Shown piece after piece: positions 39,163 to 62,684 of a stretch of DNA of 64,000 nt (position 1 is its first letter; every line of letters begins with the position of its first letter). The translations under genes and the position numbers were made by a program. Location of the stretch: the NCBI GenBank assembly GCA_947626825.1, contig CANQTM010000001.1, positions 32,568-96,567 on the forward strand, given 5' to 3'. The notes beneath the pieces were generated by a model. It ran no database searches and had not been told where the DNA came from. It worked only from the letters and a program-made list of their open reading frames with translations. Source of the stretch: an uncultured Bacilli bacterium (GTDB taxonomy: Bacteria > Bacillota_I > Bacilli_A > RFN20 > CAG-631).

Positions 39163-39264
39163 CCTTTATTTATTGCTATTTTGTGTCTTGTATAGCTCAA
39201 GAAATTTTATAAATTAATTATAGCAAATAATTAAAGTGATTAGCAATTTAAAATAACAACATTA

Positions 39265-40761
39265 TTATCTTTGCACTTGAGGTGCTTGTATATTATTATC
39301 ATCTTCAGAAAAATATTGATAGTATTTATAATTATAGTAATGATAATAACTTGAACCTCTATATGCTTTCTTTTTGATGCCATTTAAAACAAAACCTAAG
39401 ACAGGAATTTTTGAAAATTCTATCTTTTTCATTGTTGCATCTAACGAATTATTTGTTGTTACTTCATAACGAACAGCTAGAACAATTCCTGAAATAACTT
39501 TAGATAATTCTAAGACATCTGTAACTGCATTAATTGGAGGAGTATCAATGATGATATAATCATATGTACTACTCAATTCTTCTACTATGATTTTCATTTG
39601 TGCTGAACCTAATAGTTCAGATGGATTTGGGGGTAGCGGCCCAGCACAAATTAAATCCAAATTTGGAACGACATCTTTTTTAATGCTTTCATCCATAGTA
39701 CTATCTTTACTAATAAGCGTTGATAGTCCTTTTTCATTAATCACATTAAAAATTTTGTTTTGCTGATTTTTTCTTAAATCAGCATCTATTAACAATACCT
39801 TCTTGCCGGCTTCAGCTAAGGCAATAGACATATTAGCAGCTAATATTGATTTTCCTTCACTTGGATTAGCACTACTTACAGCTAAAATTTTCTTTTCAAA
39901 AGGTGATAGAGAAAAAATGACATTCATTCTAATTGTTTTAAAACTTTCCGTAATATAAAATGGAGTTTCTTCATCTGTTATTTTAAATGGATGAACCTGT
40001 TTTTCCTTTTTCTTTTTTTCGCTTGAATATTGTAAAACTTCTCCAATAATAGGCTTTTTATATTTTTTATCTAATATTTCTGTAGATTTAATAGTGTTGT
40101 CTATAGCGTCTAAAAACAAACATACTAAAACACTTATTATAAAACCTAAAATTAAACCAATTAAAGTATTTGAAAATAAATTTGGAGATACAGGTATTTT
40201 ATAAACAAAAGCATCTTCTGTTTTTTGTAATTCTCCTGCATTAATGGCCTTTTCAGTTGATGGCTTACTTTCTGAAAATAAAGCATTACATAGAGCTGCA
40301 GATAAATATGGATCTTTTGTTGTTGCTTCCACATTTATGACATTTGTATCTTCTTTATAACGAATAGAATAACATTTCTTAATTGATGAAGTTTTAACTT
40401 TATTATCACTACTAAAACTAAAATTATTTTTTAATACATCATTACTAATGTAATATGTTTCTTTATAATCAGTTGATTGCAATTTAGCATAAACATCTTC
40501 AATTACTTTATCATCTAATAACACTTCTATAAAAGTATTAGCAAGTTTCTTTGATTCAACTATATCTTGTTCACTATTTGGCAAATTGGAATTCTTTTCA
40601 ATGCGAACATAGAAATTCATATGTGATGAATATTTAGGTGCTATCAATGTTTTGGTAACTGTAAAAGCTACTAGCCCAGCACAAAATGTAATTAAGATAA
40701 TTAATTTTATTTTTGACAGTAATAAACTAAAAAAGTTTCTTACAGAGTAGTTGCTGTTCAT
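39265..40761 (-). CDS. Fused Wzz chain-length-determinant / BY tyrosine-protein kinase (Wzc/CapAB-like)
   Basis: Two TM helices flank a periplasmic-type Wzz region. Walker A SANPSEGKS, A' VLLIDADLR, Walker B IIIDTPP, and a C-terminal Tyr cluster YRGSSYYHYYNYKYYQYF. GGAGAAAAA RBS before MNSNYSV. Confidence 0.75.
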   Translation of the reverse strand: MNSNYSVRNFFSLLLSKIKLIILITFCAGLVAFTVTKTLIAPKYSSHMNFYVRIEKNSNLPNSEQDIVESKKLANTFIEVLLDDKVIEDVYAKLQSTDYKETYYISNDVLKNNFSFSSDNKVKTSSIKKCYSIRYKEDTNVINVEATTKDPYLSAALCNALFSESKPSTEKAINAGELQKTEDAFVYKIPVSPNLFSNTLIGLILGFIISVLVCLFLDAIDNTIKSTEILDKKYKKPIIGEVLQYSSEKKKKEKQVHPFKITDEETPFYITESFKTIRMNVIFSLSPFEKKILAVSSANPSEGKSILAANMSIALAEAGKKVLLIDADLRKNQQNKIFNVINEKGLSTLISKDSTMDESIKKDVVPNLDLICAGPLPPNPSELLGSAQMKIIVEELSSTYDYIIIDTPPINAVTDVLELSKVISGIVLAVRYEVTTNNSLDATMKKIEFSKIPVLGFVLNGIKKKAYRGSSYYHYYNYKYYQYFSEDDNNIQAPQVQR

Positions 40762-41076
40762 AAATATTTTTCTCCTTTTGTAGATATATTTTTTGAAAAA
40801 AGGCAATAATAAAAATAAGTCATCTTTCGCGTTTATGCTTAAAATGGTTATTAAATATCTACGAAATGATTATATTACTTATTAATTTGTAATTTCAAGA
40901 AAAATTTTTTAAAAAAGTATTGCATATTTGATAAATTATGTAATATAATATATATTTTTGTAAAAAAATAAAAAAATATGTCGAAAATCACTAATTTTTT
41001 ATTTGAATCACAAATTATCAATAAAAATAAAAAAAGAATTTGTAATTTTTTAAAGAAGGATACATTTTTAAATCTT

Positions 41077-41202
41077 TGGACATTTAAATATTTAACTAAT
41101 TTCCTTTTTGTGCTATATTGTGTATAGGTAGTTAAATAAAAAACCATAGTAAAAATTCAATAGTAATTTCCGTTTGTCAAACTAAATTGCTACTGCTAAA
41201 TG
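41077..41202. repeat. Direct repeat copy 1 (~126 bp, ~97% identical to 42172..42296)
   Basis: The string tggacatttaaatatttaactaatttcctttttgtgctatattgtgtat(a/g)ggtagttaaataaaaaaccatagtaaaaattcaatagtaatttccgtttgtcaaactaaattgctac is present twice. Contains an extended -10-like TGCTATATT. Confidence 0.85.
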
Positions 41203-41298
41203 TATATTTGTTGATGAGGTTTCCTATCTTTATTGATTTTCACAATATTTAGAAAAGAATTCTAAAAATAAATTAAGAAAATATAACAAAATAAAATG

Positions 41299-41335
41299 CT
41301 GAACCTTTAAAATTTGTTCAGCAATTTTTTTTTAA
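41299..41335. terminator. Hairpin plus T run (bidirectional terminator candidate)
   Basis: gctgaac-ctttaaaattt-gttcagc followed by T9. Confidence 0.5.
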
Positions 41336-41365
41336 ACTATTAGAAGGTTGTTTGGGATTTACTTT

Positions 41366-41826
41366 TTATTTTTTTTCGTTCCAAATTCTTCTTGATTCAT
41401 TTAATGATATACTATTAGCTCCACCATCGCTATCAGGATATGTTTCTCCATATGTTTCATTTTCCCACCCGCATATTGGACAAATGTCATAATCATCAAC
41501 ATCTTTAAAAGTATATTTACCACATACTGGGCATTTATGTTTTATTGGCTTTGGGGCAATTGATGATAAATAATTATAATTTTTGTTTTTCTTTCTTAAT
41601 TTTAAAAAATTATTTCTTAATTCTTCTATATCATGGCCTTCTGAATCTTTAGCTTTTGGATTTTCTAGTTGCTCAAGATTATATTTCCAACCACAAATAT
41701 AACAAAAGCGATCTAATCCATCTTCCCCCCTCATTAATTAGAATTTTGGTTAATTTGGGAAAATAAAATTCGTTGCACACAGGGCATTTAGTTGGTCTAT
41801 ATTTTTTTTCCTTCATGTTATTTTTC
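41366..41826 (-). pseudogene. Tandem CPCC-family cysteine-rich zinc-ribbon protein, frame broken at a G6 (C6 on + strand) homopolymer
   Basis: ATG at 41826 (MKEKKYRPTKCPVCNEFYFPK...) continues into the annotated 41366..41734 frame only if the G-run at 41725-41730 is one base shorter. The C-terminal CPVCGKYTF..YDICPICGWE..GGANSISL matches the CPCC domain. Confidence 0.5.
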
Positions 41827-42171
41827 CTTTCTTTTCTTTTGATTTAAATAGTACTTATATTCATCCTGAGGACAAAAACAAGTAATTACAATTCCATTTT
41901 TACTGATAATTGCAAATTCATTAGTCTTTATATTGTATTTAAAAGTAGATCCTTTTTTATCAACAAACAAGTTTTCTGTTTAAGTTTTCCTTATTTATTT
42001 TTAAATTTTTAGAGGAATAAAAAGTAATACTAACTTATTAAATAAAGTAATTCTATAAAATAGTATGTAATATTATTTTTATATAGTATTTTTGTTCAAT
42101 TCCTTTTCTATAATGATTTATAACAAATTATCATAATATTGTAAACACATAAAATTTATTTTTTAAATTTC

Positions 42172-42296
42172 TGGACATTTAAATATTTAACTAATTTCCT
42201 TTTTGTGCTATATTGTGTATGGGTAGTTAAATAAAAAACCATAGTAAAAATTCAATAGTAATTTCCGTTTGTCAAACTAAATTGCTACCGTTAATG
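42172..42296. repeat. Direct repeat copy 2
   Basis: See copy 1. Similarity continues at lower identity for ~35 bp beyond both ends. Confidence 0.85.
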
Positions 42297-42336
42297 CCTA
42301 TTTTTTTTAGTGGTTTCCTACTTGTTATTTTAATTT

Positions 42337-42410
42337 GTTACTTTAAAAGTGCTGGTTTTAAAGTAACATCTTTAGGATTGATTTCTACAATCCTAATTTT
42401 TTTTAGAAAT
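42337..42410 (+). terminator. Two consecutive hairpins upstream of nagA (second is a canonical intrinsic terminator)
   Basis: gttactttaaa-N9-tttaaagtaac, followed by aggatt-N11-aatcct and a T9 run. Confidence 0.45.
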
Positions 42411-42560
42411 CATCACTGTAATAAATTGATTGTAATTTATATATAAAAAAATATTTAATTTATTTTTTTAAAATTATTTTAATTGTGAAATAGACATTTA
42501 AAAATTATCTTTTTTTTTAATTTTTAGTAGTGTAAAATATTTTTTGTGGAGGGACAAAAA

Positions 42561-43691
42561 ATGGTCATTAAAAATTTAAAAATTGTTACTTTAAAAAAGA
42601 TCATTGAACATGGTTATATTGAAATAACAAATACAAAAATTACTAATATACAAGAAGGCGATTATAACAAAGATGATTCTGATGTCATAGATGGTCAAAA
42701 TCACATAGCCATGCCTGGTTTTATTGATATTCATATTCATGGCTCTTGTGGTATTGATTTTATGGATGCTGATGTAGAAGATATAAAAACTATTGCTAAA
42801 GCATTATATAGTGAAGGAACAACAACATTTTTAGCTACAACTTTAACAAGTGATACAAAATCTTTAGAAAAAGTATGTAAGGTTGTTGCTAAGGCCAAAA
42901 AAGAAGTTGCTTCTTTAGGTGGTATTCATTTTGAAGGGCCATATATTAATGCTAAATATAAAGGTGCCCAAAATGAAGCTTTTATTAGAGACCCAAACAT
43001 AGAAGAATTTAATCATCTTGTAAAATTGTCATCTAATAATGTTCGTTATATTTCTTTAGCACCTGAAAAAAATAATGCTATGGAATTTATTGCTAATGCT
43101 GTAAAACATGGAGTAACTGTTTCTGCTGGTCATACAGATGCAACATTTAATGATATTGAAAAAGCAATCTCATATGGATTAACTAATACAACTCATACTC
43201 ATAATGCAATGAGTGGTCATCATCATAGAAATCCTGGCGTAGTAACTGCAGCAATGTATTTTGATAATTTGTTTACAGAAGCTATTTGTGATGGCATTCA
43301 TGTTTGTCCAAATTCTTTAAAAACATTTTATAAGATAGTTGGACCTGATAGATTTATCATTGTTACTGATGCATTGCTTGGAAAACATTCAAATATAAAT
43401 GAATTTAAATTATTTGGTTTAGATTGTATTAAAAAAGACGGTGCTGCTTATTTAACAACAGGGCCTTTGGCTGGATCTTTGTTAACAATGGATCAAGGTG
43501 TTAGAAATATGCGTGATTATACAAATGCATCATTAATTGATTTAGCTAAAATATCTTCAACTAATGCTGCAAGAGCACTTCATTTTAAAGATCGTGGTGT
43601 TTTAGCAAAAGGAAAATTAGCCGATATTGTTTTACTTGATGATTCTTTAAATGTTGTTAATGTTTATAAACTTGGAGAAAAAGTTTATTAA
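42561..43691 (+). CDS. nagA: N-acetylglucosamine-6-phosphate deacetylase
   Basis: HIHG metal-binding motif and amidohydrolase fold. GGAGGG RBS before the ATG at 42561. Confidence 0.8.
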   Translation: MVIKNLKIVTLKKIIEHGYIEITNTKITNIQEGDYNKDDSDVIDGQNHIAMPGFIDIHIHGSCGIDFMDADVEDIKTIAKALYSEGTTTFLATTLTSDTKSLEKVCKVVAKAKKEVASLGGIHFEGPYINAKYKGAQNEAFIRDPNIEEFNHLVKLSSNNVRYISLAPEKNNAMEFIANAVKHGVTVSAGHTDATFNDIEKAISYGLTNTTHTHNAMSGHHHRNPGVVTAAMYFDNLFTEAICDGIHVCPNSLKTFYKIVGPDRFIIVTDALLGKHSNINEFKLFGLDCIKKDGAAYLTTGPLAGSLLTMDQGVRNMRDYTNASLIDLAKISSTNAARALHFKDRGVLAKGKLADIVLLDDSLNVVNVYKLGEKVY

Positions 43692-61052: not shown

Positions 61053-61355
61053 TTAAATTTGCTCATCGCTAGTACTACTTTTTTTAAATATTTGTTTAAT
61101 AATTTGATTTGCACCTGTAGAACTTGCACCACTTACAATTCCAACACCTAATGCAAACCATACATTATCTGCATTTAATATCATTTTAGGAGCAGTAAAA
61201 TAAATTAAAACACCCAATATGCCCCCAATAACTGCAACTAATATTGGAATCAATTTGTATGCTTCTTGCTTCTTTTTAAATAAAATCTTGTAAATTTCTC
61301 CTATGATATAGCAACATACAACTATAATAGGAACACATGTAAAATTCATCATCAA
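61053..61355 (-). CDS. Phage-type holin (phiLC3/A118 Hol-like, class with GxxxG-rich second TM helix)
   Basis: Three hydrophobic helices. LIPILVAVIGGILGVL...VGIVSGASSTGANQIIKQIFKK resembles the A118/phiLC3 holin family, recalled from memory. Confidence 0.45.
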   Translation of the reverse strand: MMMNFTCVPIIVVCCYIIGEIYKILFKKKQEAYKLIPILVAVIGGILGVLIYFTAPKMILNADNVWFALGVGIVSGASSTGANQIIKQIFKKSSTSDEQI

Positions 61356-61400
61356 TTAACCTCCTTCTTAAAATGAATTTTTAGTAATTTAAAATTTTAA

Positions 61401-61706
61401 TTATGTATTATCTAGTTTATACATGTCATCAACTCGTTTCGTAACATTAACTACTGACTCTTCAACTTTTGCAAGACGCTCAGCAATATTACGATCACGC
61501 TCATCTACTTTATTTAAGTTTTTTTCAACTCGATCTACACATGCTTTGATATAACCAATATCTGAAAACATCACCCCTTCTGTTTTACCATCAGTTCTTT
61601 GTTCTTGCTTATCGCTTCTTTTAAATGCTAAATAAGCAAATACAATACTTGAAATAGATGCAAAGAAACCTACTAAAATAACAATTAATTCAAAAGTCAT
61701 AACCAT
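61401..61706 (-). CDS. BhlA/UviB-like holin-like protein (N-terminal TM helix + charged coiled-coil tail)
   Basis: Architecture match: a TM helix at residues 4-27 followed by a Lys/Glu/Asp/Arg-rich helix. Confidence 0.4.
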   Translation of the reverse strand: MVMTFELIVILVGFFASISSIVFAYLAFKRSDKQEQRTDGKTEGVMFSDIGYIKACVDRVEKNLNKVDERDRNIAERLAKVEESVVNVTKRVDDMYKLDNT

Positions 61707-61865
61707 CAGCTCCTTAATCTTTTTGTTAAGAAATTTATTTCTTCATAAATAAGGAAACGAAAAGTTCAAAAGTACATGGTTTATTTTTAACTTTTTATTT
61801 TAATAAATAACATTAAAACAAAAAAATGTTAACGCCTTTTGGGCATTAACACTTTTAAAAAATTA

Positions 61866-62684
61866 TTAAAATATTTTATATGTTTTTGTTATATCATGTG
61901 ATTCGATGAAATCATTATATTCCACAATATCACAAGATCTATGAAATGCATTTAAAATTATTGATGCTATGTATTTTTTACTTTCATTTATTGTTTTAAA
62001 TGAAATAGGATTGTTAAATAATACCACGAGATCTACGTCGCTATTTTTGTGATATTCATTTTTATACATAGAACCAAACAAGAACATTGATTTAATTTCT
62101 TTTTCTACTAATTCATCTTTTTTACTTTGAAGTAAATTTATTATTTCTTCTTTTAAATTATGGTTATTTTCATTATTATTGATAAATAATGTATTAAAAT
62201 AACTATATAAAAAATATATACGAGAATTAACATTTTTTATTGTTTGATAAACTTCATACAAATTTGCTGGTGGTACACACGGATAATTGTATTGTCTTGT
62301 CAAATATATAGTCAATAGTAGAAAAAACAAATAACTTTCAGATGATGCCATTTCTTTAAATTTTATTAGATATCTATCTAACCATTCAAACACACGAATT
62401 CCTGGTTTTATTCTTTCAATTATTAAGTCAAGATTTACAATCTTCTTGTCATATATCATTTCAAAACATCTTTTATATTCTAATTCATTAGAATTAATTG
62501 GTAATGAATATATCATTTGGAACAATTTAAAATAATTTAATATTTCCTGATTAAAATTTGTATCGTTATTTTGTATTCTAAAAGTAATTTTCTTTATATC
62601 ATCGTATTTATGAACACCATAATAATTGTCATAAAATGATGATATTACTTTGCAAGGAAACGTTGAAGTATATGTTGTATCCAT
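61866..62684 (-). CDS. Protein with a C-terminal minimal nucleotidyltransferase (Pol-beta superfamily) domain and an N-terminal uncharacterised helical domain
   Basis: FLFGSMYKNEYHKNSDVDLVVLF fits the GS-x(9-13)-DhD NTase motif. Confidence 0.5.
   Translation of the reverse strand: MDTTYTSTFPCKVISSFYDNYYGVHKYDDIKKITFRIQNNDTNFNQEILNYFKLFQMIYSLPINSNELEYKRCFEMIYDKKIVNLDLIIERIKPGIRVFEWLDRYLIKFKEMASSESYLFFLLLTIYLTRQYNYPCVPPANLYEVYQTIKNVNSRIYFLYSYFNTLFINNNENNHNLKEEIINLLQSKKDELVEKEIKSMFLFGSMYKNEYHKNSDVDLVVLFNNPISFKTINESKKYIASIILNAFHRSCDIVEYNDFIESHDITKTYKIF

Follow-up and report, generated by a model that had tools for sequence, protein, structure and literature searches.

Classical IS30 is a 1.2-kb element, and a short target-site duplication of 2-3 bp is a trait of the IS30 family. 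Tandem dimers, adjacent deletions and composite transposons are known features of IS30 (PMC9330008), and an antisense RNA is reported to limit translation of its transposase (Arini et al. 1997, as cited in PMC8450116 and PMC9330008). Our analysis brings a pair of intergenic repeats close to these systems. In the window, i.e., the whole stretch of 64,000 nucleotides that was analysed, two direct repeats are very probably what remains, truncated and immobile, of the 3′ tail of an insertion sequence (IS) of the IS30 family, and they bracket a decayed two-gene cassette within an acquired segment of ~3.3 kb. The basis of this reading is that copy 2 is physically continuous with the last codons of a transposase and that the same module is found elsewhere as a 526-bp unit with inverted repeats (IRs).

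A repeat search of the window paired 41065-41199 with 42160-42294 (135 nt, 96% identity, spacing 1095), and gapped similarity runs on to about 41226-41237 / 42320-42328 (162 nt, 92%). Overall, the repeat measures ~135-165 bp and is direct, both copies being on the minus strand. An earlier note on this DNA had described near-identical copies at 41077-41202 and 42172-42296, and we find the same, with 3 substitutions and 1 indel between them. The weaker similarity that it had reported for ~35 bp on each side was recovered on the high-coordinate side, up to the limits given above, but not on the low side, where the repeat ends at 41065/42160 and the AT-rich “similarity” below these positions is not above chance. 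A core 48-mer of the repeat occurs exactly twice in the window against 0 expected, and no third copy was found in the 64 kb, which have a GC content of 25.8%, at relaxed BLAST stringency. Nine metagenome contigs of the same species align collinearly with the window (98.9-100% identity). The arrangement of the repeats is not a misassembly, since the same-species metagenome contigs L008, L009 and L011 cross both copies collinearly at an identity of at least 99.6%. The Logan contigs L014, L015 (1038 bp) and L025 end inside the repeat copies (41106, 41164 and 42201), which is expected because a multi-copy sequence here exceeds the assembly k-mer.

Copy 1 (41065-41237, minus strand) would be a fragment of the IS30-family 3′ non-coding tail, with a core at 41065-41199 that is 96% identical to copy 2 and a degenerate outer part (41200-41237, minus strand). 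It has neither a transposase remnant nor a terminal inverted repeat, and its identity to the 526-bp mini-element, over positions 303-463 of the latter, is 87-88%. Copy 2 (42160-42331, minus strand) would be the same 3′ non-coding tail, from the stop codon at 42329-42331 to a truncation at 42160; the end of the tail (~65-125 nt) is missing, as is the right inverted repeat (IRR). Copy 2 is 88-98% identical to contigs L026-L030 and L012, and shows a sharp end of homology at 42159/42160. No inverted repeat was found in the window even with 3 mismatches permitted, and both copies are therefore immobile internal fragments. In a shuffle test, neither homology of copy 1 to the IS past 41065 nor homology of the window to the IS past 42442 was significant. 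Each copy holds IS sequence that is absent from the other, so that neither is, as it now stands, a simple copy of its partner; the second copy may be due either to another insertion or to the local duplication of a fuller copy.

Read on the minus strand, copy 2 directly continues from the ~35 final codons and the stop codon of an IS30-family transposase (42332-42442, ...EEFLKKIRIVEINPKDVTLKPALLK*). The 5′ part of this relic is decayed or frameshifted in the window, and a 62-aa ORF (P0241) that covers it is intact in L012 and L026-L030. L012, a same-species contig from another sample, tracks the window from 40670 to 42442 and diverges beyond; its ORF equivalent to the minus strand reads ...NLTQEKVDLMMSHINSYERKSISTTPYKLQLAYYGEEFLKKIRIVEINPKDVTLKPALLK*, the final codons and stop of which are window 42442-42329. 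The 62-aa ORF has 56% identity to a JGI protein named “IS30 family transposase”. The extended remnant matches the last 44 positions of NCBIfam NF033563 (transpos_IS30; 224-267/267, E=1.2e-4), staying under the 80-bit full-length cut-off of that model because the sequence is a fragment. It matches annotated IS30 transposases of Clostridium beijerinckii and Butyrivibrio plasmids with E down to 4e-19. For one annotated IS30 transposase of 431 aa, the BLASTP alignment covers residues 347-430 (51% identity, E=6e-26), and the two share the LKPALLK end. Fuller transposase remnants in L033 and L034 gave E down to 1e-13.

The transposase codons present, ~35 in the window or ~85 in the mini-element, are all C-terminal; the catalytic core is absent from every copy recovered for the window species, and no full-length copy of the exact IS was recovered from the same species. 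With neither a full-length IS copy nor an IR in the window, the family assignment is drawn from the ~85-residue C-terminal remnant and from contig linkage, the latter read from short, low-coverage metagenome contigs, some of which may be chimeric via the repeat (L029; L028 versus L026). The two hairpins that the earlier note had placed before nagA do exist (42337-42367, and 42372-42396 followed by T8), although they belong to the 3′ coding end of the transposase. We also considered the 62-aa ORF as a conserved, independently expressed protein and discarded the idea, as L034 holds a full-length gene cut by the contig end and the Met in L033 is native to the subfamily.

The exact 62-aa ORF is carried by five further contigs of the same study (L026-L030), followed each time by the repeat at 88-98% identity. 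In L026, L027 and L028, both lie within a unit of 526 bp that has a perfect terminal inverted repeat of 22 bp at either end (GTAAATTGACAAAGTAAATTCC and its complement; ~30/32 when extended). Between IRL and IRR, this unit contains ~85 final transposase codons and then ~290 nt of non-coding tail, and its positions ~303-463 match the window repeat at 87-92% identity. It is flanked by at least two different sequences on the left (L026 versus L027) and at least two on the right (L026 versus L028), and in the assemblies that contain both, its coverage is close to that of the window locus (13.7 for the unit versus 16.8; 3.5 versus 3.8). These varied flanks and the matching coverage make the unit look like a MITE-like deletion derivative which has been mobile in the same genome as the window locus. 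The L026-L028 loci have the properties of MITEs (length below ~600 bp, terminal IRs, no functional transposase, several sites), whereas the window copies do not; terminal IRs in the range of the IS30 family (about 20-30 bp) are likewise found in L026-L028 and not in the window copies. Occurrence in multiple copies, also as in the IS30 family, is seen from the flanks of L026-L028 together with the two window fragments. No clear target-site duplication was seen in the L026-L028 flanks, where the exact termini are ambiguous in AT-rich DNA and some contigs may combine flanks from different loci, and around the window copies such duplications are not readable in the AT-rich flanks.

More distant relatives extend the comparison. 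In L034 (JGI 3300038985), from a different organism, the transposase 3′ end (NF033563 E=7e-13) is followed by a tail of ~205 nt and by an IRR with 88-90% identity to the mini-element IR. After a spacer of 23 nt comes the IRL with the start of another copy, so that two IS30-family copies stand head to tail at 501-620. The IRR-IRL junction of L034 is spanned by a promoter-like TTAACG-17-TAAAAT, reminiscent of the junction promoter of (IS30)2 dimers. A Butyrivibrio IS30 relative has a tail of similar length, ~260-285 nt. Within the window copies, a sub-terminal motif on the plus strand (AAATTCAATAGTAATTTCCGTTT, at 42247-42270 in copy 2 and 41152-41175 in copy 1) resembles the IR (AAATTGACAAAGTAAATTCCGTTT), and 1 of 500 shuffles scored as well; this putative site may be an extra place of transposase binding. 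Another sub-terminal motif of the tail lies at 42193-42207.

Exact-word scans of GTDB representatives, JGI metagenomes and IMG/VR with the repeat cores (19-21 nt) and the 22-nt IR returned chance seeds only, with no extension; these lay in contigs of 45-66% GC, one of them within a sigma-54 activator motif. When plasmids and phages were searched by BLASTN with the mini-element, the only similarity was to one Clostridium plasmid, in its transposase-coding part. L034 was reached via its protein, and the repeat and IR were otherwise unseen in the DNA scans of GTDB, JGI, IMG/VR, plasmids and phages. The situation that the earlier note had named as telling against its proposal, one copy of the element per genome with the cassette absent, was not found, and the element is multi-copy.

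The repeats sit in DNA that close relatives do not have. Four relatives (L016, L017/L018 and L020), Erysipelotrichaceae-like by the name given in one source, carry nagA proteins 79-85% identical to that of the window and share with it the gene order PTS-EIIB, GDSL lipase, nagA, RNase T, rlmH, alr. In L016-L018 and L020, the GDSL-lipase gene and nagA are divergent neighbours, 150-200 nt apart. BLAST against L016 placed the breakpoints at ~39222/39223 and 42503/42504, and the window therefore carries ~3.3 kb (39223-42503, from synteny and BLAST) that its closest relatives lack, containing in order the BY-kinase gene, copy 1, the CPCC cassette and copy 2. No trace of the repeat was found in L016-L018 and L020. 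The BY-kinase gene (39265-40761, minus strand) is an orphan fused Wzz/BY-kinase gene (Pfam Wzz and AAA_31); its best non-self homologue is 53% identical and most of its matches are from Clostridia, which suggests horizontal acquisition.

Some features of the surroundings may be added. The BY-kinase gene has no polysaccharide-synthesis neighbours in view, and L016, the closest relative, has an EPS gene cluster past the PTS-EIIB gene instead. An extended -10 of nagA, TGTAAAAT, lies at 42531-42538, with TGTACAAT / TGTAGAAT as the equivalents in relatives (L016/L017/L020). It is ~20 nt upstream of the ribosome-binding site and is kept in relatives without the repeat; this candidate is likely the native nagA promoter. 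Farther along the window, at 61053-62684 on the minus strand, small membrane proteins adjoin a 272-aa ORF.

The segment flanked by the direct repeats measures ~0.93 kb and holds two damaged genes. One is a CPCC zinc-ribbon gene (41366-41816, minus strand; Pfam PF14206, E=1.4e-19), of which the called product is a 122-aa ORF (41366-41734). It is frameshifted at a C6 run (plus strand 41725-41730): when one base is removed, an upstream CPVC-containing piece (41679-41816) fuses in frame with the 122-aa ORF, and the reconstructed fusion still matches PF14206. The frameshift is the same in all same-species contigs, so the split gene is a pseudogene or, possibly, a homopolymer phase switch. The other is a 5′-truncated small gene (41818-41979, minus strand) that still encodes only ~48 C-terminal residues, matching a protein family (75-150 aa) with a conserved ...HF.KHG...FAN.VDR.N.VSF.D..GSTYKYN.KTNE.AIITK.G.V.TYFKP... 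pattern, for which no family was found in Pfam, PHROGs or NCBIfam. Its position beside the CPCC gene may point to a former toxin/immunity-like pair. The hairpin at 41299-41335 (GCTGAAC...GTTCAGC), which the earlier note had assigned as a terminator following copy 1, is present; read directly from the sequence it is a bidirectional terminator, with ATTTTATTTTGTT following on the minus strand, and because of this T-rich tract on that strand too it is taken as the natural terminator of the CPCC gene.

Other explanations of the repeats were weighed against the IS remnant. The earlier note had considered that they could be the footprint left by insertion or duplication of the CPCC cassette: mobile DNA is indeed what they appear to be, but by way of truncated IS30-family tails and not of a target-site or att duplication. 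That the repeats are a recombination footprint of the cassette itself, whether an att or target-site duplication, Campbell-type integration of a one-copy circle or integron attC, seems improbable to us. Direct repeats around a ~0.93 kb segment are what such an event would leave, and inside each copy there is a 7-nt pair (ATTTAAC...GTTAAAT) similar to RYYYAAC...GTTRRRY; however, copy 2 has the transposase 3′ end and copy 1 does not, the copies differ at the other end of the tail, members of the repeat family occur at other loci without the cassette, the insertion contains no integrase or recombinase gene, there is no third repeat past the BY-kinase gene, and a 165-nt duplication far exceeds any IS30-type target duplication. 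Integron attC was discarded in its own right, as only a 7-nt core-like pair in a 48-nt hairpin was found, with no integrase and no third site, and the IS tail accounts for the sequence. The cassette may have joined by homologous (Campbell-type) recombination between IS tails. We give hardly any weight to the repeat being a duplicated promoter/5′-UTR module that serves the BY-kinase gene and the CPCC cassette on the minus strand, as the earlier note had also proposed. Each copy does lie 200-350 nt upstream of a minus-strand ORF, but in every fuller copy the minus-strand repeat follows the transposase stop codon, better promoter matches are nearer the genes (TTGAAA-18-TATAAT at 40898-40869, 11/12, by the BY-kinase gene, and 42099-42072), the repeat is found elsewhere beside unrelated genes, e.g., an ABC transporter, and its minus-strand folds are not significant, with no Rfam leader. 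A role as a nagA leader is not supported either, given the plus-strand terminator between copy 2 and nagA and the gene's own extended -10, kept in repeat-less relatives.

An addition to the IS-relic reading, which we regard as unlikely, is that the IS tail encodes an antisense sRNA; only in this altered form would the small RNA proposed in the earlier note survive. The promoter-like site that the earlier note had pointed out occurs in both copies as TTAACT-16-TATATT with a preceding TG (42187-42214, plus strand; copy 1: 41092-41119), a match to consensus only, and in copy 2 it faces inward with regard to the IS, in the antisense direction of the transposase. Written as TTTAAC-17-TGCTATATT, it would drive a plus-strand transcript of ~185 nt that, in copy 2, would cross the tail and the ~25 last codons of the transposase and stop at the hairpin-T8 terminator (42372-42405). 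In that case, both window copies would be orphan genes for an antisense RNA, able to damp in trans the transposase of whichever family members are active. The diverged L026-type tails retain the TG and both hexamers, with 3 substitutions in the spacer and many in the upstream sequence, although promoter-like matches in this 26%-GC DNA come at chance frequency (17 found in 40700-42600 versus 16.9 expected). The intrinsic terminator, ~190 nt downstream of the promoter-like site, was the one found, on the plus strand only, versus 0.2 expected; however, both hairpins lie in codons of the conserved ...VTLKPALLK* end, and coding may explain them, and the full-length Clostridium and Butyrivibrio relatives have no antisense terminator. 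The predicted 188-nt transcript folds with z=-2.55 (3/200 shuffles as stable), and the repeat itself folds on both strands no better than shuffles (z 0.12 to -1.32). Rfam returned tRNA only for the whole window at the gathering threshold and sub-threshold eukaryotic snoRNA noise only for the repeat region at E<=10. An antisense-oriented promoter match of 11/12 is present in the tail of the distant relative L034, too, and IS30 is reported to use an antisense RNA (Arini et al. 1997, as cited in PMC8450116 and PMC9330008); against this, IS30's own antisense promoter is described as central in the element and not in the tail (PMC9330008), and copy 1 has neither the target-complementary part nor the terminator. 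With still more reserve, we hypothesize that the long 3′ tail of this IS30 subgroup could be a functional module made of transposase-binding repeats and an antisense promoter, with orphan tails as “immunity” sRNA genes. If this were true, a ~185-nt RNA would pair with the 3′ end of the transposase mRNA, and orphan tails would persist and restrain the IS family in trans.

Returning to the IS-relic reading, it is reasonable to propose that IS30-family elements delivered or rearranged the ~3.3 kb segment between the GDSL-lipase gene and nagA. In the order of events that we infer, two IS copies, or one that was later duplicated, would have flanked the cassette, either in a composite transposon-like structure or through IS-mediated rearrangement, and later deletions would have removed the transposase genes and the IS ends. 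In their present state, the repeats most likely serve no dedicated purpose, except that homologous recombination between them (135 nt, 96%) could delete the cassette. No reliable cassette-deleted recombinant allele was seen among the contigs: L029 resembles one, but has 1.8x coverage and an unmatched end.

For annotation, these results show how a near-perfect intergenic repeat with promoter-like and terminator-like features may be mistaken for an sRNA or a regulatory module when it is very probably IS debris. Analysis of the repeat dates and explains a small lineage-specific insertion in a very AT-rich, Erysipelotrichaceae-like gut or environmental bacterium. The result is an ordinary mobile-DNA scar and alters no general principle.

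Among the closest known systems is the IS30 family (IS30 of E. coli, ISAba125, and WP_173710111.1 of Clostridium beijerinckii), with which the locus shares the transposase C-terminus (51% over 84 residues). Like members of that family, the fuller copies have 22-30-bp terminal IRs and a single ORF followed by a non-coding tail, they can be tandem or adjacent (L034), and they are tied to rearranged, acquired DNA. Unlike them, the window copies, at 165-280 nt, are internal fragments only and contain neither IRs nor a catalytic domain, and the 3′ tail of the element, at ~205-290 nt, is long in comparison with classical 1.2-kb IS30. The 526-bp unit of L026-L028 resembles MITE-like IS deletion derivatives in having terminal IRs and no functional transposase, and the presence of the same internal deletion at more than one locus implies mobilisation in trans. 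It differs from MITEs in retaining a 62-85-codon transposase remnant and in having been seen at only 2-4 loci, and the window copies are not complete mini-elements.

As in composite transposons, such as the ISAba125-flanked aph(3′)-VI (PMC9330008), two directly oriented copies of the same IS family surround passenger genes. Here, however, the passenger genes are pseudogenised, the IS copies are truncated and without ends, so that the unit is no longer able to move, and the original structure is a proposed one. The possible antisense promoter that lies opposite to the transposase within the IS recalls IS30 RNA-C (Arini, Keller & Arber 1997), from which it differs in lying in the 3′ tail and not in the central part, and in being known from consensus matches alone. 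What is new is an IS30-family element for which no name was found, together with its MITE-like derivative; the kind itself is well known.
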